From Nemertoderma westbladi (taxonomy: Eukaryota > Animalia > Xenacoelomorpha), in contig JAUCBJ010002736.1 in the NCBI GenBank assembly GCA_032718475.1, positions 1 through 64,000 on the forward strand: 64,000 nt of DNA. The letters are read 5' to 3'. Below are positions 1 through 59,952 of the stretch, piece after piece. The notes beneath the pieces were generated by a model, which was not told the DNA's origin, ran no database searches, and worked only from the letters and a program-made list of their open reading frames with translations. A program made the position numbers and the translations under genes. Position 1 is the stretch's first letter, and each line of letters begins with the position of its first letter.

Positions 1-578
1 CTTTCTAGTAATGTAGTTATTATATCCTTGCTCAGTTGTCTCTATATCTTTAGTTTGTCGCGCTCAATTATATCAATTTTCTAAGCGCCTTTATTATTAT
101 TATTATTAGAAATATAATTACACATATTAATATTGATGTACTAAATATAATTTTACCTCCCCAAGTTATATAAAATAAACAATAAATAAATACAACAACC
201 ATATTTAATTGACCCTTGTCGATAACCAAATGAGTCAAAAATACTTATAAAAAGGAAAAAATACATATATTATTACTGCGTAAACCGGTGTCTTCAAATG
301 AAGGCCGTTGGAGACCGTTGGAGGCCGTTGGCCGCTCCCTCCTGTTAATTTTTTAATGTTATATTTGTTTATACAAGGTTAGGTTGATATAGTTTATTAA
401 TAATCGGTGTTAATTTTAACTCCGATTAAAAATATAGACTAAATCCATATAGCGGTCGCCGCAATACCTGGATAATCTATTACATCAGTAGCGGCAGTGA
501 TTCAATGTAACGTTATCGGGTTGCTCACATAACGATCTGGTTAAGTAACATACCGAAAGATTACATAACGGCGTTCTG

Positions 579-764
579 TCACATAACGAGTCGCAAATCA
601 CATTTACTTGTATTATTTTGTTTTACCAAACTGGCGCTAATGTAACTCTCATTGGGTATAGTAGCGAGTAATTCATCTGTTATGATTATTTTTTTTGGCA
701 TAGTTGCCGGGCAACGGTAGACGTATTCGACTAATTCAGGGTCTGTGTTCAGCAGTTCGCAAAC
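579..764 (-). CDS. TFCP2: TFCP2 last coding exon
   Basis: CTTTAG acceptor. 61 codons VCELLNTDPELVEYVYRCPATMPKKIIITDELL...RLVM followed by TGA, resembling the LSF C-terminal domain. Confidence 0.85.
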   Translation of the reverse strand, partial: VCELLNTDPELVEYVYRCPATMPKKIIITDELLATIPNESYISASLVKQNNTSKCDLRLVM

Positions 765-979
765 CTAAAGAAACAAACAAAAACATGACGCAATAAATAC
801 ACAATGTAATATAAAATAAAATAAGATACAAAATAATTCTCATGAAGTTAAATAACGTAAATTATTTATTGAAATTGTATAATTCACGAATATAACTTAC
901 ACTATATTTTAATTCAATTAATTGTTCAAAATTGACTCGATTTCATTGAACATAAAAAAATTACAAATAAATATCGAAC

Positions 980-1211
980 CTTATATTTAAGTTCCCTTGC
1001 AGTAAGTTTGTCCAGGTACACAGCATGGTACACTAATTGGTTATCTATGCTCAGATAGAGAGTAAGTATTGGCCGATAGTTTCTTTGTTGTAACACATTA
1101 AACAGTCGTATCCCTTCGGCGGGGCCGCATATCGCAACCAGGTCGTCTTTAGCCATGTGTATGAGATCGGTGCCGCTGTAGTTGGCAAAAACCTCAGCGA
1201 ACATTTGAAAC
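980..1211 (-). CDS. TFCP2: TFCP2 exon 10 (SAM-like domain)
   Basis: Poly-T-AG acceptor. Encodes FQMFAEVFANYSGTDLIHMAKDDLVAICGPAEGIRLFNVL (cf. [30 protein letters not shown]). Donor AAG|GTTCGA. Confidence 0.93.
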
Positions 1212-1269
1212 CTAAAAAAAAAGCAAAGAAAGATAGGTTGCTAGGTTACATCATTAGCAATAAAATGTT

Positions 1270-4200
1270 CCACCATACCTGTTAGCTATTAACCACCGCT
1301 GTGTTTGTCCGGTCCCACCGTACCTGTTAGCTATTAACCACCGCTGTGTTTGTCCGGTCCCACCGTACCTGTTAGCTATTAACCACCGCTGTGTTTGTCC
1401 GGTCCCACCGTACCTGTTAGCTATTAACCACCGCTGTGTTTGTCCGGTCCCACCGTACCTGTTAGCTATTAACCACCGCTGTGTTTGTCCGGTCCCACCG
1501 TACCTGTTAGCTATTAACCACCGCTGTGTTTGTCCGGTCCCACCGTACCTGTTAGCTATTAACCACCGCTGTGTTTGTCCGGTCCCACCGTACCTGTTAC
1601 CTATTAACCACCGCTGTGTTTGTCCGGTCCCACCGTACCTGTTAGCTATTAACCACCGCTGTGTTTGTCCGGTCCCACCGTACCTGTTAGCTATTAACCA
1701 CCGCTGTGTTTGTCCGGTCCCACCGTACCTGTTAGCTATTAACCACCGCTGTGTTTGTCCGGTCCCACCGTACCTGTTAGCTATTAACCACCGCTGTGTT
1801 TGTCCGGTCCCACCGTACCTGTTAGCTATTAACCACCGCTGTGTTTGTCCGGTCCCACCGTACCTGTTAGCTATTAACCACCGCTGTGTTTGTCCGGTCC
1901 CACCGTACCTGTTAGCTATTAACCACCGCTGTGTTTGTGCGGTCCCACCGTACCTGTTAGCTATTAACCACCGCTGTGTTTGTCCGGTCCCACCGTACCT
2001 GTTAGCTATTAACCACCGCTGTGTTTGTGCGGTCCCACCGTACCTGTTAGCTAATAACCACCGCTGTGTTTGTCCGGTCCCACCGTACCTGTTAGCTATT
2101 AACCACCGCTGTGTTTGTCCGGTCCCACCGTACCTGTTAGCTATTAACCACCGCTGTGTTTGTCCGGTCCCACCGTACCTGTTAGCTATTAACCACCGCT
2201 GTGTTTGTCCGGTCCCACCGTACCTGTTAGCTATTAACCACCGCTGTGTTTGTCCGGTCCCACCGTACCTGTTAGCTATTAACCACCGGCTGTGTTTGTC
2301 CGGTCCCACCGTACCTGTTAGCTATTAACCACCGCTGTGTTTGTCCGGTCCCACCGTACCTGTTAGCTATTAACCACCGCTGTGTTTGTCCGGTCCCACC
2401 GTACCTGTTAGCTATTAACCACCGCTGTGTTTGTCCGGTCCCACCGTACCTGTTAGCTATTAACCACCGCTGTGTTTGTCCGGTCCCACCGTACCTGTTA
2501 GCTATTAACCACCGCTGTGTTTGTCCGGTCCCACCGTACCTGTTAGCTATTAACCACCGCTGTGTTTGTCCGGTCCCACCGTACCTGTTAGCTATTAACC
2601 ACCGCTGTGTTTGTCCGGTCCCACCGTACCTGTTAGCTATTAACCACCGCTGTGTTTGTCCGGTCCCACCGTACCTGTTAGCTATTAACCACCGCTGTGT
2701 TTGTCCGGTCCCACCGTACCTGTTAGCTATTAACCACCGCTGTGTTTGTCCGGTCCCACCGTACCTGTTAGCTATTAACCACCGCTGTGTTTGTCCGGTC
2801 CCACCGTACCTGTTAGCTATTAACCACCGCTGTGTTTGTCCGGTCCCACCGTACCTGTTAGCTATTAACCACCGCTGTGTTTGTCCGGTCCCACCGTACC
2901 TGTTAGCTATTAACCACCGCTGTGTTTGTCCGGTCCCACCGTACCTGTTAGCTATTAACCACCGGCTGTGTTTGTCCGGTCCCACCGTACCTGTTAGCTA
3001 ATAACCACCGCTGTGTTTGTCCGGTCCCACCGTACCTGTTAGCTATTAACCACCGCTGTGTTTGTCCGGTCCCACCGTACCTGTTAGCTATTAACCACCG
3101 CTGTGTTTGTCCGGTCCCACCGTACCTGTTAGCTATTAACCACCGCTGTGTTTGTCCGGTCCCACCGTACCTGTTAGCTATTAACCACCGCTGTGTTTGT
3201 CCGGTCCCACCGTACCTGTTAGCTATTAACCACCGCTGTGTTTGTCCGGTCCCACCGTACCTGTTAGCTATTAACCACCGCTGTGTTTGTCCGGTCCCAC
3301 CGTACCTGTTAGCTATTAACCACCGCTGTGTTTGTCCGGTCCCACCGTACCTGTTAGCTATTAACCACCGGCTGTGTTTGTCCGGTCCCACCGTACCTGT
3401 TACCTATTAACCACCGCTGTGTTTGTCCGGTCCCACCGTACCTGTTAGCTATTAACCACCGCTGTGTTTGTCCGGTCCCACCGTACCTGTTAGCTATTAA
3501 CCACCGCTGTGTTTGTCCGGTCCCACCGTACCTGTTAGCTATTAACCACCGCTGTGTTTGTCCGGTCCCACCGTACCTGTTAGCTATTAACCACCGCTGT
3601 GTTTGTCCGGTCCCACCGTACCTGTTAGCTATTAACCACCGCTGTGTTTGTGCGGTCCCACCGTACCTGTTAGCTATTAACCACCGCTGTGTTTGTCCGG
3701 TCCCACCGTACCTGTTAGCTATTAACCACCGGCTGTGTTTGTGCGGTCCCACCGTACCTGTTAGCTAATAACCACCGCTGTGTTTGTCCGGTCCCACCGT
3801 ACCTGTTAGCTATTAACCACCGCTGTGTTTGTCCGGTCCCACCGTACCTGTTAGCTAATAACCACCGCTGTGTTTGTCCGGTCCCACCGTACCTGTTAGC
3901 TATTAACCACCGCTGTGTTTGTCCGGTCCCACCGTACCTGTTAGCTATTAACCACCGGCTGTGTTTGTGCGGTCCCACCGTACCTGTTAGCTAATAACCA
4001 CCGCTGTGTTTGTCCGGTCCCACCGTACCTGTTAGCTATTAACCACCGCTGTGTTTGTCCGGTCCCACCGTACCTGTTAGCTATTAACCACCGCTGTGTT
4101 TGTCCGGTCCCACCGTACCTGTTAGCTATTAACCACCGCTGTGTTTGTCCGGTCCCACCGTACCTGTTAGCTATTAACCACCGCTGTGTTTGTGTGTTCC

Positions 4201-6767
4201 CACCGTACCTGTTAGCTATTAACCACCGCTGTGTTTGTCCGGTCCCACCGTACCTGTTAGCTAATAACCACCGGCTGTGTTTGTCCGGTCCCACCGTACC
4301 TGTTAGCATTAACCACCGCTGTGTTTGTCCGGTCCCACCGTACCTGTTAGCTATTAACCACCGCTGCGTTTGTCCGGTCCCACCGTACCTGTTAGATTAA
4401 CCACCGCTGTGTTTGTCCGGTCCCACCGTACCTGTTAGCTATTAACCACCGCTGTGTTTGTCCGGTCCCACCGTACCTGTTAGCTATTAACCACCGCTGT
4501 GTTTGTCCGGTCCCACCGTACCTGTTAGCTATTAACCACCGCTGTGTTTGTCCGGTCCCACCGTACCTGTTAGCTATTAACCACCGCTGTGTTTGTCCGG
4601 TCCCACCGTACCTGTTAGCTATTAACCACCGCTGTGTTTGTCCGGTCCCACCGTACCTGTTAGCTATTAACCACCGGCTGTGTTTGTGCGGTCCCACCGT
4701 ACCTGTTAGCTAATAACCACCGCTGTGTTTGTCCGGTCCCACCGTACCTGTTAGCTATTAACCACCGCTGTGTTTGTCCGGTCCCACCGTACCTGTTAGC
4801 TAATAACCACCGCTGTGTTTGTCCGGTCCCACCGTACCTGTTAGCTAATAACCACCGCTGTGTTTGTCCGGTCCCACCGTACCTGTTAGCTATTAACCAC
4901 CGCTGTGTTTGTCCGGTCCCACCGTACCTGTTAGCTATTAACCACCGCTGTGTTTGTCCGGTCCCACCGTACCTGTTAGCTAATAACCACCGCTGTGTTT
5001 GTCCGGTCCCACCGTACCTGTTAGCTATTAACCACCGCTGTGTTTGTCCGGTCCCACCGTACCTGTTAGCTATTAACCACCGCTGTGTTTGTCCGGTCCC
5101 ACCGTACCTGTTAGCTAATAACCACCGCTGTGTTTGTCCGGTCCCACCGTACCTGTTAGCTAATAACCACCGCTGTGTTTGTCCGGTCCCACCGTACCTG
5201 TTAGCTATTAACCACCGCTGTGTTTGTCCGGTCCCACCGTACCTGTTAGCTATTAACCACCGGCTGTGTTTGTGCGGTCCCACCGTACCTGTTAGCTAAT
5301 AACCACCGCTGTGTTTGTCCGGTCCCACCGTACCTGTTAGCTATTAACCACCGCTGTGTTTGTCCGGTCCCACCGTACCTGTTAGCTATTAACCACCGCT
5401 GTGTTTGTCCGGTCCCACCGTACCTGTTAGCTAATAACCACCGCTGTGTTTGTCCGGTCCCACCGTACCTGTTAGCTAATAACCACCGCTGTGTTTGTCC
5501 GGTCCCACCGTACCTGTTAGCTAATAACCACCGCTGTGTTTGTCCGGTCCCACCGTACCTTTTAGCTAATAACCACCGCTGTGTTTGTCCGGTCCCACCG
5601 TACCTGTTAGCTATTAACCACCGCTGTGTTTGTCCGGTCCGACCGTACCTGTTAGCTATTAACCACCGCTGTGTTTGTCCGGTACCACCGTACCTGTTAG
5701 CTATTAACCACCGCTGTGTTTGTCCGGTCCCACCGTACTTGTTAGCTATTAACCACCGCTGTGTTTGTCCGGTCCCACCGTACCTGTTAGCTAATAACCA
5801 CCGCTGTGTTTGTCCGGTCCCACCGTACCTGTTAGCTATTAACCACCGCTGTGTTTGTCCGGTCCCACCGTACCTGTTAGCTATTAACCACCGCTGTGTT
5901 TGTCCGGTCCCACCGTACCTGTTAGCTATTAACCACCGCTGTGTTTGTCCGGTCCCACCGTACCTGTTAGCTATTAACCACCGCTGTGTTTGTCCGGTCC
6001 CACCGTACCTGTTAGCTATTAACCACCGCTGTGTTTGTCCGGTCCGACCGTACCTGTTAGCTATTAACCACCGCTGTGTTTGTCCGGTCCCACCGTACTT
6101 GTTAGCTAATAACCACCGCTGTGTTTGTCCGGTCCCACCGTACCTGTTAGCTAATAACCACCGCTGTGTTTGTCCGGTCCCACCGTACCTGTTAGCTAAT
6201 AACCACCGCTGTGTTTGTCCGGTCCCACCGTACCTGTTAGCTAATAACCACCGCTGTGTTTGTCCGGTCCCACCGTACCTGTTAGCTATTAACCACCGCT
6301 GTGTTTGTCCGGTCCCACCGTACCTGTTAGCTATTAACCACCGCTGTGTTTGTCCGGTCCCACCGTACCTGTTAGCTATTAACCACCGCTGTGTTTGTCC
6401 GGTCCCACCGTACCTGTTAGCTATTAACCACCGCTGTGTTTGTCCGGTCCCACCGTACCTGTTAGCTATTAACCACCGCTGTGTTTGTCCGGTCCCACCG
6501 TACCTGTTAGCTATTAACCACCGCTGTGTTTGTCCGGTCCCACCGTACCTGTTAGCTAATAACCACCGCTGTGTTTGTCCGGTCCCACCGTACCTGTTAG
6601 CTAATAACCACCGCTGTGTTTGTCCGGTCCCACCGTACCTGTTAGCTAATAACCACCGCTGTGTTTGTCCGGTCCCTCCGTACCTGTTAGTTATTAACCA
6701 CCGCTGTGTTTGTCCGGTCCCACCGTACCTGTTAGCTATTAACCACCGCTGTGTTTGTCCGGTCCCA
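1270..6767 (-). repeat. 45-bp minisatellite (~122 copies) made of exon-9 end plus splice donor
   Basis: Minus-strand unit ACCGGACAAACACAGCGGTGGTTAATAGCTAACAG|GTACGGTGGG, near-identical copies. Confidence 0.98.
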
Positions 6768-6900
6768 GCGTCCGCACTAAGGGGTTGTCCCGCTCGAACA
6801 GTTTTTCCGCCAATAAGAAACCCTTCGAAGTGCCCTTCCCCATTCCCTAACGTTGAATTCGGACTGCAACTTGCGTCGGAATGATCGCTCAGACTTTGGT
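6729..6900 (-). CDS. TFCP2: TFCP2 exon 9 (start of SAM-like domain)
   Basis: TTTTAG acceptor. Encodes DQSLSDH...LSADAGTGQTQRWLIANR (cf. TFCP2 QQWLHRNR). Donor CAG|GTACGG at 6728. Confidence 0.88.
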
Positions 6901-7103
6901 CTAAAACAAATAAAATATATACGATAGGCAAAAATACGGGATGTAAATAAGGGGCGGGGGGGGGGGGGGGGGGGTACCCCTACAAAAAAACTTAGTTTCA
7001 ACATCAGGGGGTTTTAAAGAAATAAATTGATTGTGACTTGAGTATAAAGAAATTCTAGAACGCCTCAATAATTTTGAATTGGGTTGTTGTAACATACACT
7101 TAC

Positions 7104-7314
7104 CGAGTGAGGATAACTTGCCGCTCGTCTTTAGTTTTTTTGGCCGAAGTACGTCCGCGGGATTGGTGGATGTATCTGTTTGCTCGATACCTGATTGGTT
7201 GAAACTCGTGTCATATGGATTTTTAACTGAGGTCCGTTGTCCTGGAGACGGATAACCTTTCATTTGAGAAGGTTTTAATGAACAATTCACTCCTTTACGC
7301 GATTTTCCCTCAAC
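7104..7314 (-). CDS. TFCP2: TFCP2 exon 8 (linker)
   Basis: TTTTAG acceptor, open frame VEGKSRKG...KLSSL, donor CG|GTAAGT. Phases 0/1 fit the neighbours. Confidence 0.75.
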
Positions 7315-9704
7315 CTAAAAAGCGTAAAAAGTTATATGAGAATGAAAGATACCGAGTGCCGGAGGCAACCCGGCATTTAATGGGCAAATTTTCACAATTT
7401 TTTACTACTTCGGTCATAAGTATAAAAAATCCGAGCACTTAGAAATTTCCTGATTGTCTTTCTCAGTTTTTCTAACTCGTGGCTCAGTTAATCTTTAATG
7501 ATCGTTTCAAATATCATGGAAAATTCGCTGTTAGCGCCATGCATGGCGGTAGTTGTGGTACCAGCATCGTTTGATGGGGGTGGGCGGCTACCCCCTCCCG
7601 TGGTAAAATTTTAAAATTTTTGTTTTATATTTCGTCTGATGCTGAATTTAATGGGGACTTTAAATATTAAAACGGCTTGGTGAGATCTTTTCTAGTTCTC
7701 AATAAGTTATCGCTGTTTCCGTCTAACAGTTTGTCCGTCGAAATTTAGACGACTGACTAACGTAAAAACAGACGTCGGAAATCACCGACCCCGAAAACCT
7801 CTATTGATAATTTCAGTGAGTTGTTATGAAGCAATTTAGTGCCAAACATTACTAACCGATTAACCGACCACAGACAGGTTTGAGGGGGAAAGTTGAAACT
7901 TTAAAGGAAATTATCTCGGAATTCACATTTTTCGATTTTTCTAAATACTACTCCTCCGCCATTTTTATCTCAAATTCAACAATTTATGGCTTTATTTGAT
8001 TGGATGGCTTTTTTTCCGAGAGGTTGAAGATCTTGAAAAACTTCACATTTTTGGGAATTTTAATTTAATTTAATAATTTTAATTTAATTATTAAATTTAT
8101 CAATTATATTTAATGAAAAAATTTGGATAAAAATTAAGGGACTAGTGTTATTAGTGAAATATTTAATTCTGCTACTCGCCGATAGAGGGAAACAAAAAGT
8201 TTTCAAATTTAAATTTTTTTGCTCTTTGGCCTTCCCCACGTTGTTGGCTGAACACAACAACAGGAAGTGACATACAATACGTAGTTGGAGCTGTTTCCAT
8301 GGAAATGAGATAGATAACCCCAATTGTTTTTCCAAAAATGAACTTCATTTACTAAAATTTCCCTCACCATAAATCGATATAAGATTTTACTGGTACAGTT
8401 CTGTTTAATATTGTGTTTACCTATTTAATTTACCCTGCTCGTTGTATAGATAATGATATTTATTCTTACTAAAATTCGGGGGTGTCACGGTCCCATGTGA
8501 CGTACACTAGACTTTCTGCTGTTATATTTCACTTTTCAGTTTGCCCCCATGTGAAGAATACCAGGTTTTCACAAAAGTCCCATGTCACGGGATTAACCCT
8601 GTGTACACTTCGACATCCCAAAGTTATTAACAACAATATTGTTATTTATTATATTTATTTATTAACAACAACTTCGGTTTGAAGAACTATCAAAAGCTTG
8701 AGTTCTAGGCCCCATATAAGTTGTGTCAATCTAGATCCCCTAACAACCCATGATACAGAAGGGCGAATCTAACCAAAACAATAAACGGAAACATACGCGC
8801 ATGATAAATAAATGATAAATTCAAGCTATAAAACACTTAATAAAGGCTACCAATTAAAGTCACTCCAAAATTGATGAATATTTCACCAGAAAAATTATAT
8901 TATACCAATTTAAATAATATCCCAAAAAAAATTATTCAACACCAAATAAAATAAAGTCACCACAAATAAAATTATTCAACACCAAAAACCAATTATTCAC
9001 ACCAAAACAATGACAAAACCCCCAAAATAATTACAAACTTTCCCAAAATAAGTACATATCGCCCCAAAATAAATACATACATAAATGGATATTCAATTCC
9101 CCCAAAATATTCAAGTATTCTACCAAAATAAACAGACTCTTAGTTACAGACTCTCAGTTGCAGAGAATATTGGTACGAGGATCGTTAGTATACGATGATT
9201 AAACATTTTGTTTGATTTATGGAAATAAATAATTAATGAATTTGTATTTGGTGTTATGAATATAATATAATATGAATATAGAATAAAATAGAATGAATAT
9301 ATATTTGGTGTTGGAAGAATTGTTTTTGGTTGACAAGTAATTATTTTAGGGAGATTGAATACTTTTTGAGGTATGAATAATTGTTTTTGGGGACGAATAA
9401 TTGTTTTTGGTGAGGGAGATATTCAAAATTGGGGGATGTAAATTATTGGTGCTACAAAAAATATATTTGGTGCTAAATAATTGATTTTTGTGTCAAATCA
9501 TCTAATTTGGGGCGGCATTCTATTAGTGGCGCTAATAAAGGAGAAATAAAAAAAATACAAAATTATCATATATAAAATTCCAATAAAATTTCTACCGAAA
9601 AGTGAAAACCTGATATTCTTCACATGGGCGGGTGTCATAGGGGTTTGATACCAATATGGTTACGTTTTACACGGGTAATACGGTTGTATATTTAACTGAC
9701 GTAC

Positions 9705-9892
9705 CTTGACCTGTTTGTATTGCTCAGCTAGATCGGCAAAAGATAAATCCTTGGTGTCGATAGTAATAAGAGGTTGACTACCCATCGGTTGGTTTGCGAT
9801 TAAGTGGAGGGGAAGGGGCGGTGGGGGTGGGGGAGGGGGAGGAGGGGGGCACTTCCCTTCCGATACCGAATCACGGCGCTTCGTTCCAGTAC
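9705..9892 (-). CDS. TFCP2: TFCP2 exon 7 (proline-rich linker)
   Basis: Open frame with a poly-Pro tract, phase-1 acceptor GCTTAG and phase-0 donor AAG|GTACGT. Phases fit the neighbouring exons, but there is no conserved motif. Confidence 0.65.
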
Positions 9893-10292
9893 CTAAGCCA
9901 ATCAACAGTTAGTCTATCATAACGTCATTCGGTCACATCCAGTGACGAATTCCACGAATTATTAGTTAGATTTATCATTACGGCTTATAATTCCTGGAAT
10001 TTACGCCACAATATCTTATCTTTCTGAGAATACTATACTGTAATGTAATGTATGTCTACTACACTGTAATCTTGTTTATTGGGATGATTGCTGCAATAGT
10101 CCGGTAAATATTGCATTACCTTGCATGGAAGTAAATGAAATAAACAACCCGACTTACCATACTGGTACCATTGAGGGTTTACCTAAAAGTTACCAAATTC
10201 TACACCAGATCGTGACTTTAGTTTCCATAATATTGTTCGATCTTGTACAGATTTACCTTGGTGTTGTTGGTACAGCAGCTGTATACACGTAC

Positions 10293-10524
10293 CTTGGGCA
10301 GGTGTCTGTCCCGTACCAGTAGGACTTCTAGCAGGCGCCCTCGGTAGAACAGCTGGGGAGGTAGGGTGACTCCAGTTCACCGGTATATCGTAGACGCATT
10401 GGGAGAGCAGCGTACACTCGTACGACGGCTGGTACTTCTGGGCCTCTTTAGCCGGCTTCCTTTCCAGTTTATCGCGATCTGTTTTACGTTTACGATCGGC
10501 GCCTTTCGGTTTAAATACCTTCAC
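10293..10524 (-). CDS. TFCP2: TFCP2 exon 6
   Basis: CTACAG acceptor. Encodes VKVFKPKGADRKRKTDRDKLERK...KYQPSYECTLL. The 3' end is uncertain: there are phase-1 donors at 10292 (CAAG|GTACGT) and 10256 (CAAG|GTAAAT). Confidence 0.85.
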
Positions 10525-10637
10525 CTGTAGATAAACAGATTAACGATTCGTAATATTGATTAATTAGAGTTCCCGGGAAGGTTGGGCATTGAAATAATCT
10601 ACGGCAAAATCGTAACATCGCTCAATGACATTGTTAG

Positions 10638-10860
10638 AAGCGTGTCTCGTCAAACCGATTGGTCACTCGCTTTTCTTATATAGCTAGGAGGTCCCAGGAT
10701 CGATCCCTTGCCAAGGTAGTTACAATTTTGTAACTAGTGCGCCAGCCAATGCGGGGACCTGGCTTCTGCTGGGTGAGCAAAGAAAATAGATTGGATGTTT
10801 ACGGGATGTTCACCCTTGGGAGTTAGTGTGGCGCCATCCCTTCCTTATAGGTAACAGCCA
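10638..10860 (+). mobile_element. Possible degenerate tRNA-derived SINE
   Basis: B-box-like GGAGGTCCCAGGATCGATCCC in a GC-richer intronic patch. Boundaries are uncertain. Confidence 0.25.
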
Positions 10861-10959
10861 CGAGATAATATCTTTCTGGTGCCTCCGGTGTTTCGTGTTT
10901 CACACGTTCACCGATCACTTTAGTTACCCAACTAGACATTCATCCACAATCTCGCCTAC

Positions 10960-11118
10960 CTGGGCACTAGCAGAGAATACTAGATTGGGATCCTGGCTGA
11001 CATCTGAACTAGGAACAGACTGATTGGGTAACATAAAAGTATCCAACTGGATTCGGAAAGGTACTCCTCTCTCCCCTCCGTGCTTCCTTTGTGTAAATTC
11101 TGTACCGATACAATGGAC
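10960..11118 (-). CDS. TFCP2: TFCP2 exon 5
   Basis: TTTTAG acceptor. Encodes [28 protein letters not shown]...FSASAQ, the hallmark CP2 motif. Donor CAG|GTAGGC. Confidence 0.95.
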
Positions 11119-11163
11119 CTAAAATAAACGAAAATATATCAGCATCAATTTAAAATACAGTTG

Positions 11164-14100
11164 GCGGGTTGCTTGGATCCCTACCTACCTGTATAAACAC
11201 ACTGACGGGTTGCTTTGGATCCCTCCCTACCTGTATAAACACACTAGCGGGTTGCTTGGATCCCTCCCTACCTGTATAAACACACCTGACGGGTTGCTTT
11301 GGATCCCTCCTTACCTGTATAAACACACTAGCGGGTTGCTTGGATCCCTCCCTACCTGTATAAACACACCTGACGGCTTTGGATCCCTCCCTACCTGTAT
11401 AAACACACTAGCGGGTTGCTTGGATCCCTCCCTACCTGTATAAACACACTAGCGGGTTGCTTGGATCCCTCCCTACCTGTATAAACACACTGACGGGTTG
11501 CTTTGGATCCCTCCCTACCTGTATTAACACACTAGCGGGATGCTTGGATCCCTCCCTACCTGTATAAACACACTGACGGGTTGCTTGGATCCCTCCCTAC
11601 CTGTATTAACACACTAGCGGGTTGCTTGGATCCCCCCTACCTGTATAAACACACTGACGGGTTGCTTGGATCCCTCCCTACCTGTATTAACACACTAGCG
11701 GGTTGCTTGGATCCCTCCCTACCTGTATAAACACACTAGCGGGTCGCTTGGATCCCTCCCTACCTGTATAAACACACTGACGGGTTGCTTGGATCCCTCC
11801 CTACCTGTATAAACACACTGACGGGTTGCTTGGATCCCTCCCTACCTGTATTAACACACTAGCGGGTTGCTTGGATCCCTCCCTACCTGTATAAACACAC
11901 TAGCGGGTCGCTTGGATCCCTCCCTACCTGTATTAACACACTAGCGGGTTGCTTGGATCCCTCCCTACCTGTATAAACACACCTGACGGGTTGCTTTGGA
12001 TCCCTCCCTACCTGTATAAACACACTAGCGGGTTGCTTGGATCCCTCCCTACCTGTATAAACACACTGACGGGTTGCTTGGATCCCTCCCTACCTGTATA
12101 AACACACCTACGGGTTGCTTGGATCCCTCCCTAGCTGTATAAACACACTGACGGGTTGCTTGGATCCCTCCCTATCTGTATAAACACACCTACGGGTTGC
12201 TTGGACCCCTCCCTACCTGTATAAACACACTGACGGGTTGCTTGGATCCCTCCCTACCTGTATTAACACACTAGCGGGTTGCTTGGATCCCTCCCTACCT
12301 GTATAAACACACCTGACGGGTTGCTTTGGATCCCTCCCTACCTGTATAAACACACTAGCGGGTTGCTTGGATCCCTCCCTACCTGTATAAACACACTGAC
12401 GGGTTGCTTGGATCCCTCCCTACCTGTATTAACACACTAGCGGGTTGCTTGGATCCCTCCCTACCTGTATAAACACACTAGCGGGTCGCTTGGATCCCTC
12501 CCTACCTGTATAAACACACTGACGGGTTGCTTGGATCCCTCCCTACCTGTATAAACACACTGACGGGTTGCTTGGATCCCTCCCTACCTGTATTAACACA
12601 CTAGCGGGTTGCTTGGATCCCTCCCTACCTGTATAAACACACCTGACGGGTTGCTTTGGATCCCTCCCTACCTGTATAAACACACTAGCGGGTTGCTTGG
12701 ATCCCTCCCTACCTGTATAAACACACTAGCGGGTTGCTTGGATCCCTCCCTACCTGTATAAACACACTGACGGGTTGCTTTGGATCCCTCCCTACCTGTA
12801 TTAACACACTAGCGGGATGCTTGGATCCCTCCCTACCTGTATAAACACACTGACGGGTTGCTTGGATCCCTCCCTACCTGTATAAACACACTAGCGGGTT
12901 GCTTGGATCCCTCCCTACCTGTATAAACACACTGACGGGTTGCTTGGATCCCTCCCTACCTGTATTAACACACTAGCGGGTTGCTTGGATCCCTCCCTAC
13001 CTGTATAAACACACTAGCGGGTTGCTTGGATCCCTCCCTACCTGTATAAACACACTAGCGGGTTGCTTTGGATCCCTCCCTACCTGTATTAACACACTAG
13101 CGGGTTGCTTGGATCCCCCCTACCTGTATAAACACACTAACGGGTTGCTTTGGATCCCTCCCTACCTGTATAAACACACTAGCGGGTTGCTTGGATCCCT
13201 CCCTACCTGTATAAACACACTAGCGGGTTGCTTGGATCCCTCCCTACCTGTATAAACACACTGACGGGTTGCTTTGGATCCCTCCCTACCTGTATTAACA
13301 CACTAGCGGGTTGCTTGGATCCCTCCCTACCTGTATAAACACACTGACGGGTTGCTTGGATCCCTCCCTACCTGTATAAACACACTAGCGGGTTGCTTGG
13401 ATCCCTCCCTACCTGTATAAACACACTGACGGGTTGCTTGGATCCCTCCCTACCTGTATAAACACACTGACGGGTTGCTTGGATCCCTCCCTACCTGTAT
13501 AAACACACTAGCGGGTTGCTTGGATCCCTCCCTACCTGTATAAACACACTGACGGGTTGCTTGGATCCCTCCCTACCTGTATTAACACACTAGCGGGTTG
13601 CTTGGATCCCTCCCTACCTGTATAAACACACTAGCGGGTTGCTTGGATCCCTCCCTACCTGTATAAACACACCTGACGGGTTGCTTGGATCCCTCCCTAC
13701 CTGTATAAACACACTGACGGGTTGCTTGGATCCCTCCCTACCTGTATTAACACACTAGCGGGTTGCTTGGATCCCTCCCTACCTGTATAAACACACTGAG
13801 CGGGTTGCTTGGATCCCTCCCTACCTGTATAAACACACTAGCGGGTTGCTTTGGATCCCTCCCTACCTGTATAAACACACTAGCGGGTTGCTTGGATCCC
13901 TCCCTACCTGTATAAACACACTGACGGGTTGCTTGGATCCCTCCCTACCTGTATTAACACACTAGCGGGTTGCTTGGATCCCTCCCTACCTGTATAAACA
14001 CACTAGCGGGTTGCTTGGATCCCTCCCTACCTGTATTAACACACTAGCGGGTTGCTTGGATCCCTCCCTACCTGTATAAACACACCTGACGGGTTGCTTT

Positions 14101-14972
14101 GGATCCCTCCCTACCTGTATAAACACACTGACGGGTTGCTTGGATCCCTCCCTACCTGTATAAACACACTAGCGGGTTGCTTGGATCCCTCCCTACCTGT
14201 ATAAACACACTGACGGGTTGCTTTGGATCCCTCCCTACCTGTATTAACACACTAGCGGGTTGCTTGGATCCCTCCCTACCTGTATAAACACACTGACGGG
14301 TTGCTTGGATCCCTCCCTACCTGTATTAACACACTAGCGGGTTGCTTTGGATCCCTCCCTACCTGTATAAACACACTTAGCGGGTTGCTTGGATCCCTCC
14401 CTACCTGTATAAACACACTGACGGGTTGCTTGGATCCCTCCCTACCTGTATTAACACACTAGCGGGTTGCTTGGATCCCTCCCTACCTGTATAAACACAC
14501 TAGCGGGTCGCTTGGATCCCTCCCTACCTGTATAAACACACTAGCGGGTTGCTTGGATCCCTCCCTACCTGTATAAACACACTGACGGGTTGCTTGGATC
14601 CCTCCCTACCTGTATAAACACACTGACGGGTTGCTTGGATCCCTCCCTACCTGTATAAACACACCTACGGGTTGCTTGGACCCCTCCCTACCTGTATAAA
14701 CACACCTGACGGGTTGCTTGGATCCCTCCCTACCTGTATAAACATACTAGCGGGTTGCTTGGATCCCTCCCTACCTGTATAAACATACTAGCGGGTTGCT
14801 TGGATCCCTCCCTACCTGTATTAACACACTAGCGGGTTGCTTGGATCCCTCCCTACCTGTATAAACACACTGACGGGTTGCTTGGATCCCTCCCTACCTG
14901 TATAAACACACTGACGGGTTGATTGGATCCCTCCTACCTGTATAAACACACTAGCGGGTTGCTTAGGATCCC
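11164..14972 (-). repeat. ~41-bp minisatellite (~92 copies) made of exon-4 end plus splice donor
   Basis: Minus-strand unit GGATCCAAGCAACCCGCTAGTGTGTTTATACAG|GTAGGGAG, with GCTAG/GTCAG, TTTATA/TTAATA and +/-1-nt variants. Confidence 0.98.
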
Positions 14973-15093
14973 ACAGGAACTCCCCCTGGTTTATGGGACC
15001 ATGACGGGCTCCCGCTATACCAAAGGACTGCGGTACATCGATGTAGAGCATGCGTTCCCCTGGTCTGTTAGCGAACCACGAAACCAGCTGCTC
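14938..15093 (-). CDS. TFCP2: TFCP2 exon 4
   Basis: CGTAG acceptor. Encodes EQLVSWFANRPGERMLYIDVPQS...EFLWDPKQPASVFIQ. Donor CAG|GTAGGA at 14937. Confidence 0.93.
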
Positions 15094-15321
15094 CTACGGG
15101 GTGATAAACAAACGCAAGATTGAAGGTGGTATAAGAAATAAATATACCGGTAATTAATAATGCAATACAATACATTATACGGCGTATTTGTTACACTAAA
15201 GTGCCATGGCCTGGCCAACCGTAACCATATTCTACAACGGCTTCTACACAATCAACCCTGTCTGCCAGAGTGCCAGTACTGTACCACTTATATCTACATC
15301 ATACTGTAGGATACCGGATAC

Positions 15322-15437
15322 CTGTTCATTATATTGGTGTTTTCGTTCGTGAAATAGAACTCGAACAACGCTCTTGAGAAATTCACCGAATTCGTCTGGA
15401 TCGCCAAGTTTTTTTAAATTAATTTCGTAACTCTGAC
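15322..15437 (-). CDS. TFCP2: TFCP2 exon 3
   Basis: TTGCAG acceptor. Encodes QSYEINLKKLGDPDEFGEFLKSVVRVLFHERKHQYNEQ. Donor CAG|GTATCC. Phases are consistent with neighbours. Confidence 0.93.
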
Positions 15438-15535
15438 CTGCAATCGCAATAATCAAGCAATTACAACGGGTGGTTTATGAAAACAGTATTTTTAGAATAG
15501 GTCTAGACCAACTTCGATGCAAAATGAATTGAGAA

Positions 15536-18207
15536 TGAACTCACCTTGGTATAGCTGCGTACTGAACTCACCTTGGTATAGCTGCGTACTGGACTCACCT
15601 TGGTATAGCTGCGTACTGAACTCACCTTGGTATAGCTGCGTACTGAACTCACCTTGGTATAGCTGCGTACTGAACTCACCTTATTATAGCTGCGTACTGA
15701 ACTCACCTTGGTATAGCTGCGTACTGAACTCACCTTGGTATAGCTGCGTACTGAACTCACCTTGGTATAGCTGCGTACTGAACTCACCTTGGTATAGCTG
15801 CGTACTGAACTCACCTTGGTATAGCTGCGTACTGAACTCACCTTGGTATAGCTGCGTACTGGACTCACCTTGGTATAGCTGCGTACTGAACTCACCTTGG
15901 TATAGCTGCGTACTGAACTCACCTTGGTATAGCTGCGTACTGAACTCACCTTGGTATAGCTGCGTACTGAACTCACCTTGGTATAGCTGCGTACTGAACT
16001 CACCTTGGTATAGCTGCGTACTGAACTCACCTTGGTATAGCTGCGTACTGAACTCACCTTGGTATAGCTGCGTACTGAACTCACCTTGGTATAGCTGCGT
16101 ACTGAACTCACCTTGGTATAGCTGCGTACTGAACTCACCTTGGTATAGCTGCGTACTGAACTCACCTTGGTATAGCTGCGTACTGAACTCACCTTGGTAT
16201 AGCTGCGTACTGAACTCACCTTGGTATAGCTGCGTACTGAACTCACCTTGGTATAGCTGCGTACTGAACTCACCTTGGTATAGCTGCGTACTGAACTCAC
16301 CTTGGTATAGCTGCGTACTGAACTCACCTTGGTATAGCTGCGTACTGAACTCACCTTGGTATAGCTGCGTACTGAACTCACCTTGGTATAGCTGCGTACT
16401 GAACTCACCTTGGTATAGCTGCGTACTGAACTCACCTTGGTATAGCTGCGTACTGAACTCACCTTGGTATAGCTGCGTACTGAACTCACCTTGGTATAGC
16501 TGCGTACTGAACTCACCTTGGTATAGCTGCGTACTGAACTCACCTTGGTATAGCTGCGTACTGAACTCACCTTGGTATAGCTGCGTACTGAACTCACCTT
16601 GGTATAGCTGCGTACTGAACTCACCTTGGTATAGCTGCGTACTGAACTCACCTTGGTATAGCTGCGTACTGAACTCACCTTGGTATAGCTGCGTACTGAA
16701 CTCACCTTGGTATAGCTGCGTACTGAACTCACCTTGGTATAGCTGCGTACTGAACTCACCTTGGTATAGCTGCGTACTGAACTCACCTTGGTATAGCTGC
16801 GTACTGAACTCACCTTGGTATAGCTGCGTACTGAACTCACCTTGGTATAGCTGCGTACTGAACTCACCTTGGTATAGCTGCGTACTGAACTCACCTTGGT
16901 ATAGCTGCGTACTGAACTCACCTTGGTATAGCTGCGTACTGAACTCACCTTGGTATAGCTGCGTACTGAACTCACCTTGGTATAGCTGCGTACTGAACTC
17001 ACCTTGGTATAGCTGCGTACTGAACTCACCTTGGTATAGCTGCGTACTGAACTCACCTTGGTATAGCTGCGTACTGAACTCACCTTGGTATAGCTGCGTA
17101 CTGAACTCACCTTGGTATAGCTGCCTACTGAACTCACCTTGGTATAGCTGCGTACTGAACTCACCTTGGTATAGCTGCGTACTGAACTCACCTTGGTATA
17201 GCTGCGTACTGAACTCACCTTGGTATAGCTGCGTACTGAACTCACCTTGGTATAGCTGCGTACTGAACTCACCTTGGTATAGCTGCGTACTGAACTCACC
17301 TTGGTATAGCTGCCTACTGAACTCACCTTGGTATAGCTGCGTACTGAACTCACCTTGGTATAGCTGCGTACTGAACTCACCTTGGTATAGCTGCGTACTG
17401 ACTCACCTTGGTATAGCTGCGTACTGAACTCACCTTGGTATTATAGCTGCGTACTGAACTCACCTTGGTATAGCTGCGTACTGAACTCACCTTGGTATAG
17501 CTGCGTACTGAACTCACCTTGGTATAGCTGCGTACTGAACTCACCTTGGTATAGCTGCCTACTGAACTCACCTTGGTATAGCTGCGTACTGAACTCACCT
17601 TGGTATAGCTGCGTACTGAACTCACCTTGGTATAGCTGCGTACTGAACTCACCTTGGTATAGCTGCGTACTGAACTCACCTTGGTATAGCTGCCTACTGA
17701 ACTCACCTTGGTATAGCTGCGTACTGAACTCACCTTGGTATAGCTGCGTACTGAACTCACCTTGGTATTATAGCTGCGTACTGAACTCACCTTGGTATAG
17801 CTGCGTACTGAACTCACCTTGGTATAGCTGCGTACTGAACTCACCTTGGTATAGCTGCGTACTGAACTCACCTTGGTATAGCTGCGTACTGGACTCACCT
17901 TAGTATAGCTGCGTACTGAACTCACCTTGGTATAGCTGCGTACTGAACTCATCTTGGTATTATAGCTGCGTACTGAACTCACCTTGGTACAGCTGCGTAC
18001 TGGACTCACCTTAGTATAGCTGCGTACTGAACTCACCTTGGTATAGCTGCGTACTGGACTCACCTTGGTATAGCTGCGTACTGAACTCACCTTGGTATTA
18101 TAGCTGCGTACTGAACTCACCTTGGTATAGCTGCGTACTGGACTCACCTTAGTATAGCTGCGTACTGAACTCACCTTGGTATAGCTGCGTACTGAACTCA
18201 CCTTGGT
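15536..18207 (-). repeat. 27-bp minisatellite (~99 copies) containing the exon-2 splice donor
   Basis: Minus-strand unit ACCAAG|GTGAGTTCAGTACGCAGCTAT, highly homogeneous. Confidence 0.98.
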
Positions 18208-18336
18208 TGAGATACGTGATACTCTCTTCGTTAAGTTTAGTAGCTGGCGAGGTCGCGGCATTAAATATAAACTGAAATCCAGACTCCTTGAATATTGGTA
18301 CAGCCAAGAGGTCGTTCATATTATAAGCACCGGCTC
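18202..18336 (-). CDS. TFCP2: TFCP2 exon 2 (start of CP2 DNA-binding domain)
   Basis: CCTAG acceptor. Encodes [45 protein letters not shown]. Donor CAAG|GTGAGT at 18201. Confidence 0.95.
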
Positions 18337-18425
18337 CTAGGATATAAGCAAAATGTTATTAACCTCTAAATTACTTACAATTAGTTAGCTAATTAATTTA
18401 GCTATAGGAATTTGGAAACATTTAA

Positions 18426-19335
18426 GGGGGGTAGCGCTATTTTAACACAGTCAATGAAAACTAATAGTAACATGGCAAGGCTTTGTCCAAAATGAATAAT
18501 TTTTGGTATAAGGGTCAATCGATAACTGAAGGTTGCCTTAAAGAAAAAATGAATTAGGATCAAAATTTTAAAACTCTCACCAATCTTTTGAAGACACCAA
18601 GCTTGTGATTACTGTGTCCAAATTAAATAAAAAAATATTAAAAATTGGCAGAAGAGTAGCATTTGAAATTCTGAGATAATTGCCTTTTAAGTGTGAAACT
18701 TCCCGCGCAAAAACTGTCTGTCAATATATATCTAGCAACAAGAAAGCACAAAACCATGCTAAGATTTTTGCTATGGGGGTTTTCCTGGTCGCTGATTTCA
18801 TTTATGAGGTCAGTTTTCACTCTCAAGAAATCTGTATGTCTGTCTGTAGGTCTTTCTGACTATCCGACTCTCTGTCTGCCAAATATAAGAAAAAGGCACA
18901 CCATCTAGCTAAAAGTTTAGCTATAGGCGTTTTCCTGGTCGCAGAATTCATTTAGAGTGTCAATTTAAACATTTGATGATTTCCAAATTGTCTGTACGGC
19001 TGTCAGAGTGTCGGTTATATTTTGACAGACAGACTGGCAGGCATACAGACGGAACCGACAAGGTCAAATTTGAATGAAGTCATCGACCACGAAAACCCAT
19101 ACTGCCATACAGGGAATTTTTTAGACAGATAGTATGCTTTTTATTGACAGACAGACATGTCAGACAAACCGACAGTAAAACGGACAGACGCCATATCTGA
19201 GAAGTAAGACAGATATTGCGAAACGGTTTTCAAATCGGAAATATCGATAAAAATCTGATCTGGATGAAATATAAAAAAAATATTTGTAAAAAATTATTGT
19301 AATAGAGCTACCCCCCCCCCCCCCCCCCCCCCCCC
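18426..19335. mobile_element. Putative non-autonomous DNA transposon (Kolobok-like) in TFCP2 intron 1
   Basis: Left end TTAA-GGGGGGTAGCGCTATT. Right end AATAGAGCTACCCCCC (16-bp inverted repeat, 1 mismatch). The right TSD is obscured by a poly-C run. Confidence 0.5.
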
Positions 19336-19602
19336 AATAAAACTAAAACCTTTATTAATTTAATAAATAAATGTATTGGCCTAGTAAATAATATAAATAT
19401 TTAATAAAACCAGTAACCTATTGAGAATCACCCATGGTGGTTAGAAGGAATTATTCCTGGTTTAATAATGCTAAAATATTACCCCACGCACAAAATGTAT
19501 AGGCCTATATGTTACCTGATTAGATTAACCATAATTTAATATACCGGTAGATTAATTAGGAGCCGCATTTGGCATTAGATTTATTAGCGGTACTCTACTC
19601 AC

Positions 19603-19990
19603 TAAATTCGGTTCCCAGACCGCTCAAGCTGGCCTCAAAGTCCGATACCAACGACGCCTGGGGGTCGTCTAGAGGGAGATTCCAGGAGGCGATGTTAACA
19701 ACATCCCTCGTGGAGAACCCATTGTCTTCGTCGATAGAGGAATCAGCGGTGTCTGCTGTGAACATCCGGGAGCCTGGGAACAGTCGTTCCACCAAACGTT
19801 CAGTTGTTCCGTCCGATTCGCTACAAGAGGTTGCTGTGCTGGAGGAGTCAGTCTGGGACCCCAGCTGTCCCAACGGGACACCACGCCCGCAAGGGACAGC
19901 AATAGCCCCAGTACCAGGGACAGCAATAGCCCCGTTCAGATTCATCGACGGAGCGAATGTAATAAAGTTGTCCGGTTGTAAATTACTCAT
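19603..19990 (-). CDS. TFCP2: LSF/TFCP2-family transcription factor, coding exon 1
   Basis: ATG at 19990. Ends ...WNLPLDDPQASLVSDFEASLSGLGTEF, resembling the TFCP2 N-terminus (LPL..LVQDFDASLSGIGQEL). Donor A|GTGAGT at 19602. An upstream acceptor TTTTAG at 20052 suggests a 5'UTR intron. Confidence 0.85.
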
Positions 19991-25154: not shown

Positions 25155-25430
25155 TGTTGCGGCGATTGTGTCCCCGTTGTGACAACTATAGCAGCCGTTG
25201 TGGCGATTGTGTCCCCCGTTGTGACAACTATAGCATCCGTTGTGGCGATTGTTTCTTCCGTTGTTGCAACTATAACCTCCGTAGTGGCGATTGTTTCCTC
25301 CGTTGTGGCAACTATAACCTCCGTAGTGGCGATTGTTTCTTCCGTTGGGGCAACTATAACCTCCGTAGTGGCGATTGTTTCTTCCGTTGGGGCAACTACA
25401 GTATAACATTTGTTGTGGCGATTGTTTCCA
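25155..25430. repeat. 42-bp (2x21) tandem repeat, left block
   Basis: Unit GTTGTGGCGATTGTTTCCTCCGTTGTGGCAACTATAACCTCC. Confidence 0.9.
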
Positions 25431-25754: not shown

Positions 25755-26328
25755 TGTGAGCGGATTCAATTCCGCCTCATTACCCCCATAAAGTTGGGAA
25801 GTGGCGCCCTTTTCAGCAATATTGGAGATACCAGATTGATAACAACCAATCTCGTATCACGACCCAATAACGGGGTTAACATACACCCCAAAAGCCACAC
25901 AAAGGGAGGTTAGAGGTCAAACCACCTCGAGAGGGCAGATAACCAACAGCGGGGGGGGGGGGGGGGGCACTCCCACAGAGGTGAGAGGCGTGAAGTAGGT
26001 CATCAACCAATGGGAGCGGGGAAAAGTATCCACTGGACACAGGCCAAAGTAATGTAGGAATGAATACATATATTATCCTATTACCGGTCAGTTAATCAGT
26101 TTACTCAGTCATTAAGTTCAGTGTAGACCGGTGATGTTTTTCACCGTCACCATCACCATCACAACATGTTACATTATCACTACCGGTATACTGCTATTAT
26201 ATTGTCAATTCAACTGTGCTATTATCCATTACGAATATCAGAGGGATAACAACAAACTGTCATTATTTTATCTCAAACGGTGACGCATAGTCAACTAAAC
26301 CCGATAGGGATCCCTTGATCCTGTCACA
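25755..26328 (+). repeat. 5' LTR
   Basis: TGTGAGCGG...TGTCACA. About 15-20 differences from the 3' LTR by eye. Confidence 0.93.
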
Positions 26329-32528: not shown

Positions 32529-33103
32529 TGTGAGCGGATTCAATTCCGCCTCATTACCCCCATAAAGTTGGGAAGTGGCGCCCTTTTCAGCAATATTGGA
32601 GATACGAGATTGATAACAACCAATCTCGTATCACACCCAATAACGGGGATAACATACACCCCAAAAGCCACACAAAGGGAGGTTAGAGGTCAAACCACCT
32701 CGAGAGGGCAGATAACCAACAGCGGGGGGGGGGGGGGGGAAGCACTCCCACAGAGGTGAGAGGCGTGAAGTAGGTCATCAACCAATGGGAGCGGGGAAAA
32801 GTATCCACTGGACAAAGGCCAAAGTAATGTAGGAATGAATACATATATTATCCTATTACCGGTCAGTTAATCAGTTTACTCAGTCATTCAGTTCAGTGCA
32901 GACCGGTGATGTTTTTCACCGTCACCGTCACCATCACTACATGTTACATTATCACTACCGGTATACTGCTATTATATTGTCAATTCAACTGTGCTATTAT
33001 CCATTACGAATATCAGAGCGATAACAACAAACAGCCATTATTTTATCTCAAACGGTGACGCGTAGTCAACTAAACCCGGTCGGGATCCCTTGATCCCGTA
33101 ACA
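32529..33103 (+). repeat. 3' LTR
   Basis: TGTGAGCGG...GTAACA, preceded by the PPT. Confidence 0.93.
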
Positions 33104-33392
33104 CGCTACTTTATACATAATGATAATGATGTCCATTGTATATCATATACGTGTAAAATAGCGTGGTTAATAGATGAGTCTCTAAATTTATACGGGCTTG
33201 GTATCGTTTTTTGTGTTCTACACAAAACGTTATTTTTTGTGTAAAACACAAAACGTTATTTTTTGTGTAAAACACAAAACGTTACCGGTATTTTTTGTGT
33301 AAAACACAAAAAGATGCATTACTGTAATACATCAATACAGATTAATATCAGTAGTTTTAACTAAATCAATGTTGATGAACGTTAGATAAACT

Positions 33393-33860
33393 GTTGTGGC
33401 GATTGTTTCCTCCGTTGTGGCAACTATAACCTCCGTAGTGGCGATTGTTTCCTTCGTTGTGGCAACTATATCATCTGTTGTGGCGATTGTTTCCTCCGTT
33501 GTGGCAACTATATCATCTGTTGTGGCGATTGTTTCCTTCGTTGTGGCAACTATAACCTCCGTAGTGGCGATTGTTTCCCCCGTTGTGGCAACTATAGCAT
33601 CTGTTGTGGCGATTGTTTCCCCCGTTGTGGCAACTAACGCATCTGTTGTGGCGATTGTTTCCCCCGTTGTGGCAACTAACGCATCCGTTGTGGCGATTGT
33701 TTCCCCCGTTGTGGCAACTAACGCATCTGTTGTGGCGATTGTGTCCCCCGTTGTGGCAACTATAGCATCCGTTGTGGCGATTGTTTCCCCCGTTGTGGAA
33801 ACTAACGCATCTGTTGTGGCGATTGTGTCCCCCGTTGTGGCAACTATAGCATCCGTTGTT
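33393..33860. repeat. 42-bp (2x21) tandem repeat, right block
   Basis: Same family as 25155-25430, ~11 copies. The two blocks flank the LTR insertion. Confidence 0.9.
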
Positions 33861-45074: not shown

Positions 45075-45076
45075 CT

Positions 45077-48284: not shown

Positions 48285-48800
48285 CAATATTTTTACTCTC
48301 GATATTTTTCAACACTTGATATTTTTACTCCCGATATTTTTACTCTCGATATTTTTCAACACTCGATATTTTTTCTCTCGATATTTTTACTCTCGATATT
48401 TTTCAACACTCGATATTTTTCAACACTCGTTATTTTTACTCCCGATATTTTTACTCTCGATATTTTTCAACACTCGATATTTTTAAACACTCGATATTTT
48501 TCAACACTCGATATTTTTACTCTTGATGTTTTTACTCTCGATATTTTTCAACACCCGATATTTTTACTCTCGATATTTTTACCCTCGATATTTTTCAACA
48601 CTCGATATTTTTCAACACTCGATATTTTTCAACACTCGATTTGTTTCAACACTCGTTATTTTCGATATTTTTCATCTTGCGTTATTTTTACTCCCGATAT
48701 TTTTTAATCACGTAAATTTTCAACACTCGTTATTTTTACTCTCGATATTTTTACTCTCGTTATTTTTACTCTCGATATTTTGCAAGTCTCGATATTTTTT
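48285..48800. repeat. Short-unit tandem repeat (CTCGATATTTTT core)
   Basis: Alternating ACTCTCGATATTTTT and CAACACTCGATATTTTT units. Confidence 0.9.
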
Positions 48801-59495: not shown

Positions 59496-59718
59496 GTCAG
59501 TGAACGAATCCTACGATTCGTTACAATTACCTAATGCTTCCTTGGTAACACTTACTAACCCATACTGTATAGCGTCTACGTCTACTGATATGTTCTATTG
59601 TAGAAATAGAATATATTTAGAGAGTCTTGTTGTTGTTTATGTTTAGTATGGATGGATCGATTGTTAATTATCAGACACGGTTAATTGTTTATTTATCCTA
59701 TCCATTTCTTTATTTCAG

Positions 59719-59952
59719 GACTGATAAACCGCCCACTCAGATATTATTCAACGATCTGGACGAAACGATTAACGAGACCCACGAGACAGCTGCTGACACT
59801 TCCGACGCTGAGGATGAGGTTGTATGTCCCTGCGAAAAACACTACAAACCCCTACTCAATCTCGTTCTACCTATGAGTGTCGATAATCTGTGGACTTTGT
59901 TGTTCGCTGCCGAATCCAATTTCTATAAAACATTCCTTTTTGAGTTTGGAAA
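59719..59952 (+). CDS. GRAMD1: GRAMD1/Aster-like exon, start of VASt domain
   Basis: TTTCAG acceptor in a matching phase. Encodes LLNLVLPMSVDNLWTLLFAAESNFYKTFL. Donor AA|GTAAGT. The gene continues beyond the window. Confidence 0.85.

Follow-up and report, generated by a model that had tools for sequence, protein, structure and literature searches.

How can a gene go on coding for an intact protein when three of its introns have each been filled with copies of their own 5' splice site, and what could have placed those copies there? The question is raised by a TFCP2/LSF gene, a member of the CP2 family, in Nemertoderma westbladi. The whole stretch of DNA that was analysed, 64,000 nucleotides of contig JAUCBJ010002736.1 (assembly GCA_032718475.1), is called the window. 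An earlier note on this DNA had reported three tandem arrays that begin at splice donors of the gene, and this observation is confirmed as real and exact. The arrays are an unusually large and dense case of a kind already known, the tandem repeats named mirages in lancelets.

The host gene

The gene model that carries the arrays is as follows.

570 to 19990, minus strand: TFCP2/LSF (CP2-family) gene, 11-exon model with an open frame of 724 amino acids
19990-19603, 18336-18202, 15437-15322 and 15093-14938, minus strand: exons 1 to 4
11118-10960, 10524-10293, 9892-9705 and 7314-7104, minus strand: exons 5 to 8
6900-6729, 1211-980 and 764 to a stop near 580, minus strand: exons 9 to 11

When the exons are joined at the first donors, an intact open frame of 724 amino acids is obtained, in which the CP2 DNA-binding domain is followed by the SAM and C-terminal domains. 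This frame aligns with a fish UBP1 protein (P0004) at 52% identity over 282 amino acids and 35% over 158 (BLASTP, E values of 4e-94 and 6e-27), and the alignment runs ungapped across all three array junctions. The statement that CP2-family exons join correctly at the first donor is thus borne out. With a single TFCP2 exon as query, UBP1/CP2 proteins made up 13 of the 42 candidates; Pfam matches on single exons were to CP2, SAM_3 and GRHL1_C, those to CP2 and GRHL1_C falling below the cut-offs. The start codon and the low-complexity middle exons belong to the model only, and three junctions are seen in spliced contigs.

The linker at 10293-10158 (minus strand) contains a second in-frame donor-like site, CCAAG/GTA (here and below the slash marks the exon-intron border), 36 nt after the 10293 donor, together with a candidate 25-nt micro-exon at 10182-10158, which breaks the frame and was omitted from the model. 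Judging by these signals, alternative splicing in the TFCP2 linker is possible.

Position, units and copy counts of the arrays

The three arrays, as delimited by Tandem Repeats Finder, and the donors at which they start are given below. Each of these donors follows a coding exon.

1270-6771, minus strand: array A1, 45-bp unit, 122.2 copies, 98% matches
6729/6728, minus strand: start of A1, donor of intron 9, CAG/GTACGG
11164-14972, minus strand: array A2, 41-bp unit (range 39-43), 92.4 copies, 93% matches
14938/14937, minus strand: start of A2, donor of intron 4, CAG/GTAGGA
15536-18207, minus strand: array A3, 27-bp unit, 98.6 copies, 97% matches
18202/18201, minus strand: start of A3, donor of intron 2, AAG/GTGAGT

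Each unit is composed of the end of the exon and the first 6-9 bases of the intron, and the arrays extend into the intron; the three occupy 62% of the gene span. The number of bases identical to the exon end is 39 in the A1 unit, about 34 in the A2 unit and only 6 in the A3 unit, where 6 of the next 12 bases match as well. A walk along the units found 122 junction copies in A1, 92 in A2 and 99 in A3, 313 in total, which agrees with the figure of about 300 donor copies given before. The GT dinucleotide is kept in 310 of the 313 (122/122, 90/92 and 98/99, respectively; the A2 count is that obtained after the removal of one spurious terminal piece, from 91/93).

Except for the donor motif the units are unrelated to each other, with local alignment scores of 11-20 against 95th percentiles of 16-17 in shuffled sequence. 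Tandem Repeats Finder and these scores agree with the description of three unrelated units of 45, about 41 and 27 bp spanning TFCP2 donors, and a common origin of the units was rejected on the same comparison. Copies of the units elsewhere in the window (19001-64000) were also considered and rejected, the best match being diffuse and located inside a Pao element.

Behind the last donor of each array a short tail leads to the acceptor.

1212-1278, minus strand: A1 tail, 67 nt, with the last donor CAG/GTATGG, unique DNA and the acceptor
11119-11188, minus strand: A2 tail, 70 nt, with the last donor CAG/GTAGGT, 25 nt of array-like sequence, 45 nt of unique sequence and the acceptor
15438-15544, minus strand: A3 tail, 107 nt, with the last donor copy, unique DNA and the acceptor

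The distances of 67, 70 and 107 nt are exactly those first reported. The acceptors sit 45-98 nt into the unique tails, and as this unique DNA is no part of the arrays, the arrays have lengthened introns and did not create them. Copies of the units on the acceptor side were found in none of the 10 introns (shuffle p values of 0.06-0.89), and convincing decayed donor arrays were found at none of the other seven donors. Two candidates for such decayed copies were rejected: a match in the intron 10959-10525 (p 0.003), which is a 20-nt exon-internal match placed about 160 nt into the intron and without a donor, and the CCAAG/GTA site after the 10293 donor (p 0.09).

All three tails are shorter than each of the seven array-free introns (203-2390 nt), an arrangement with a chance of 1 in 120 if the tails are the ancestral introns. 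For A1 and A3 it is plausible that the tail corresponds to an ancestral short intron. For A2 this is doubtful: 25 of its 70 nt are still array sequence, and therefore it is not a clean ancestral intron. The tail of A2 begins within a unit, so that the end of this array resembles a deletion junction, and erosion after the growth of the arrays could equally yield short tails.

Presence of the arrays in reads and choice of the donor

Four of the six listed sequencing runs (X1-X4) were compared with one 761-nt stretch of the window (14850-15610), by means of the contig pieces listed (all but 12); the read evidence covers A2 and A3. In X1 and X2, two DNA runs from two studies, the introns are covered without interruption and the units of A2 and A3 are present. 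The A2 unit is joined to an identical unique tail in both runs, and the A3 tail is contiguous with its array in both. Over 606 nt, X2 and the window are set apart by 4 substitutions and 1 indel, and X2 is likely to come from another individual, whereas X1 may be the run behind the window itself.

On the other hand, X3 and X4 skip a 228-nt CT..AC intron that X1 and X2 retain, and join exon to exon; for this reason both runs, labelled 'DNA?', are taken as RNA. The array units have no cover in these two runs, and no weight is given to this. In the X3 contig (1297 nt, depth 869, 0 differences), exon-specific sequence is followed immediately by the next exon, at A2 as well as at A3, and the X4 contig shows the first donor spliced to the following exon at A2; the loose ends of the contigs were placed at 18204 (A3) and 11087 (A2). 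In the A2 intron (two studies) and in the A3 intron (one study) the dominant donor is thus the first, and splicing at the first donor is predicted for the A1 intron. The proposal that splicing picks the first of the equivalent donors holds in this measure, for A2 and A3, and no special splicing system is required for it.

In X1 the contig of the A3 unit has a depth of 646 against 8.7 in the flank, which is about 74-fold, and the commonest A3 unit is present in 78 copies. The corresponding ratio in X2 is 11-24-fold. Contig depth cannot be taken as a copy number, and the libraries differ; the contrast between both runs hints at a length polymorphism.

Variation within the arrays and coding consequences

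The mean identity of the units to their consensus is 0.95-1.00 when each array is divided into fifths. Variants recur in repeated, ordered blocks in all three arrays, the most uniform parts being the 3' portions of A1 and A3, and in A1 and A2 both the first unit and the last donor are private variants. Border units excluded, this is concerted evolution within arrays, and the pattern of variants is best read as ordinary stepwise turnover of minisatellites. Across the three arrays, 11 variant types fall on donor positions -3 to +6 where 12.4 are expected, and 3 fall within the GT where 2.8 are expected. The spare donors are thus neither purged nor preserved, and they mutate at the neutral rate.

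The full protein can be produced only from copies 1-2 in A3, where an in-frame stop lies in the second unit, and only from copies 1 and 3 in A2, whereas the reading frame of A1 stays open through the first 33 copies. A reading of the arrays as protein repeats was rejected for A2 and A3 on account of stops and frameshifts.

Comparison with known systems

The opinion that this is not a described system is not supported, as lancelet mirages and two human variable number tandem repeats (VNTRs) have already been published. Mirages is the name used in lancelets for tandem repeats that span exon-intron borders; according to the available sections of two reports (PMC3087553, PMC3902484) they are found in Adh3, globin, troponin C and PGBD5. 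The globin genes concerned are BflGb6/BflGb9 (PMC3087553), and a troponin C mirage and two arrays in PGBD5 are described in PMC3902484. For Adh3, units of 10-72 bp are quoted in these citing papers, which also report length instability and concerted evolution of mirages, and somatic instability in the case of Adh3. The origin of mirages is called unclear in PMC3087553.

The unit of the lancelet mirages described in these sections spans the border, the splice signal is repeated and normal splicing is kept; several loci are affected, and one gene (PGBD5) carries two arrays. The TFCP2 arrays have the same features, namely a border-spanning unit, intact splice signals, undisturbed splicing (in A2 and A3) and concerted evolution. 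They differ from the mirages in copy number, with 92-122 copies against the 2-7 given for globin and PGBD5, in that all three lie on the donor side, and in the share of the gene span that they occupy.

The closest parallel for donor choice is the 37-bp VNTR of human F7 intron 7. According to the part of the study available (Borensztajn et al. 2006, PMC1557585), which employed 50 constructs, the downstream pseudo-donors are functional and the most upstream one is chosen, which was named 'oriented scanning'. The likeness to the TFCP2 arrays extends to the first unit, which spans the border, to the identical donors downstream and to splicing at the most upstream one. However, the F7 VNTR has 5-9 copies and is the only array in its gene as described there, and its donor choice was tested with constructs, whereas that of TFCP2 is known as the dominant spliced contig alone. 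Human CBS carries a 31-bp VNTR, c.1444_1467+7(16_21), which is polymorphic in length (PMC2630376, in the available part); by its name, 24 exon and 7 intron bases make up the unit, a build shared with A1 and A2, but with 16-21 copies.

Tandem repeats at exon-intron borders are also a feature of intron gain by tandem duplication, the Rogers model, as outlined in the available part of De Grassi and Ciccarelli (2009, PMC2812944). This origin was rejected for the TFCP2 arrays, in view of the acceptors in unique DNA and of the 10 introns free of acceptor-side copies.

Origin of the arrays

The arrays are probably mirage minisatellites in the ordinary sense, that is, the product of ordinary duplications at the border and of amplification by unequal exchange, tolerated through the choice of the first donor in a repeat-rich genome. 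In this sequence of events, a border-spanning piece of 27-45 bp would have been duplicated once, by slippage or by repair guided by microhomology. Growth to about 100 copies may then have proceeded by unequal exchange, with stepwise block amplification and homogenisation, as the order of the variants suggests, and the length of the arrays is probably still variable between individuals. The normal protein is made through first-donor splicing, which is the dominant form for A2 and A3 and the predicted one for A1; because the first donor is used, the arrays are likely harmless. Selection would purge expansions inside exons and most of those on the acceptor side, and would ignore spare donors. Related to the initial duplication, 8 of the first 12 nt of the A1 tail are the same as in the exon at positions -45 to -34, with an offset of exactly one period (45), and this is the sole score of at least 8 among 495 offsets, which suggests a seed of short homology.

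Several observations weigh against this explanation. The argument from the A1 seed match becomes circular in part if a decayed unit forms the beginning of the tail, and no seed-homology peak stands out at A2 or A3. Contigs drop rare isoforms, so that minor use of later donors may occur, and the use of the first donor at A1 is a prediction only. The most serious difficulty is the excess of arrays at donors. Large arrays were defined as those with at least 10 copies and a period of at least 17; the window, which has 12 donors, contains 9 independent ones, two pairs having been merged by judgement. Three of these nine span donors where 0.08 are expected (P about 5e-5, a post hoc figure, the window having been selected for this very feature), and in this window the claim that their location is unlikely by chance therefore stands. 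The remaining six are not at donors. Tolerance cannot by itself make arrays commoner at donors than in neutral DNA, and all three in-gene arrays are at donors (P about 4e-4, post hoc). A mutational bias at the GC-richer exon ends covers only a part of this: 59% of donor-spanning 40-mers reach a GC fraction of at least 0.45 against 18% of intron-internal ones, and weighting for GC-rich seeds lifts the in-gene P only to about 0.008 (hand calculation). GC-rich seeds were considered as the whole cause and found insufficient at that value. Besides, neutral growth does not predict that the arrays should be carried by the shortest introns, as the tails would indicate. By title or abstract, no published genome-wide test of a donor versus acceptor bias of such arrays was found.

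It is this association with short introns that gives weight to an alternative which is considered unlikely on the whole but worth keeping in view, namely that the arrays are an escape by expansion. A donor duplicated within a very short intron would offer an equal donor nearer to the acceptor, which intron definition favours; selection would then lead either to reversion or to a long array, which makes the junction exon-defined, so that the first donor wins and large arrays come to lie where the shortest introns have their donors. The tails of 67-107 nt, set against 203-2390 nt in all seven array-free introns, agree with this. So does a human study which, in its available part (PMC9225289), reports that of two donors of equal strength the downstream site is favoured beside a short intron and the upstream site beside a long one; on this pattern, a two-copy duplication in an intron of 70-110 nt would be the least favourable condition, and a long array the way out of it. 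In two of the three units the length is divisible by 3 and the consensus frame is open, which would make a two-copy stage less harmful, although two of three is not significant. However, the last donors are not weakened, the one of A2 (CAG/GTAGGT) being nearer to the consensus than its first donor; the deletion-like start of the A2 tail inside a unit means that short tails may reflect erosion after growth; human F7 takes the first donor with just 5-9 copies; depth suggests that X2 may have far fewer copies; and only three arrays are available. If escape by expansion were true, it would account for the clustering of mirages at donors and for the 100 copies, and splicing would impose a ratchet that lengthens the shortest introns of the lineage.

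A mutational process coupled to splicing or transcription, which at donors bound by U1 would both make and amplify arrays through paused polymerase, R-loops or junction microcircles, was the mechanism favoured in the earlier note. The excess over chance in the window and the three donors against no acceptors affected among 10 introns speak for it, but no evidence was found that U1/Pol II, R-loops or microcircles are at work, and it is rated as improbable. The units share neither border nor length (the intron contributes 6-9 bases, and 6-39 bases are identical to the exon), interspersed blocks of variants suit stepwise exchange better than a single rolling-circle event, and two GGG runs occur only in the A2 unit, with none in the A3 unit. 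Lancelet globin mirages are found at 5' as well as 3' borders in the available text of PMC3087553, and a 47-bp array in an intron of the neighbouring GRAMD1 gene starts about 208 nt past the donor and without an exon match, from which it follows that not every genic array is donor-based. That the spare donors are functional, as a landing pad for U1 or as a ladder of isoforms tuning TFCP2 output, is very improbable: the GT kept in nearly every copy and the 33 in-frame options in A1 would fit, whereas the neutral-rate variation at donor positions, the full protein obtainable from only 2 copies each in A3 and A2, and the use of copy 1 in the spliced contigs seen do not. Least credible of all is that the arrays are artefacts of assembly. 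The very high identity of the units, the absence of an array-spanning contig among those listed and the restriction of read support to A2 and A3 would allow it, but in both DNA runs the A2 and A3 units reach depths well in excess of the unique flank, by which an artefact is largely refuted for these two arrays, and ordered variant blocks run through all three arrays.

Meaning of the arrays

The kind being known already, the TFCP2 arrays are of value for their scale and because they can be tested. With about 100 equal donors, of which the last is 67-107 nt from the acceptor, they constitute a natural stress test between first-donor choice (scanning or exon definition) and nearest-donor choice (intron definition), and in this gene with short introns of the invertebrate type the first donor wins in the two introns seen. 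If the pattern of the shortest introns held genome-wide, it would link the recognition of splice sites with repeat expansion and intron growth. Such arrays can also mislead gene predictors and short-read assemblies.

Other features of the window

Exons of the GRAMD1/Aster gene are located at 58348-59952 (plus strand) and 60160-62320, and the next intron holds the 47-bp array, with 45 copies and a higher-order period of 194. The GRAMD1 sequence is about equally similar to those of molluscs, arthropods, fish and lancelets, at most 62% (Branchiostoma 53-57%, molluscs or fish up to 61%), and in the collection searched neither GRAMD1 nor TFCP2 has matches that point to a close relative.

Two retroelement-like regions are present. 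At 38292-45149 (minus strand) an intact frame of 2286 amino acids belongs to a Bel/Pao-type long terminal repeat (LTR) retrotransposon, with Pfam matches to Peptidase_A17, DUF1759, DUF5641 and Integrase_H2C2. The direct repeats of 575 nt at 25755-26328 and 32529-33103 are LTR-like and 97% identical, and enclose about 6 kb of decayed coding-like, repeat-rich DNA; the pair is flanked on both sides by one 42-bp minisatellite (25156-25428 and 33391-33859), as if inserted in an array.

A tandem duplication of about 2.3 kb occupies 52422-57038, with a G-rich 45-bp minisatellite in each copy, and AT-rich minisatellites lie outside recognised genes at 46201-47109 (19-bp) and 48287-48799 (15/17-bp). 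Finally, many pure runs of G or C of about 15-25 nt are scattered over introns and intergenic DNA (for example at 6953-6975, 19311-19335 and 52447-52467).

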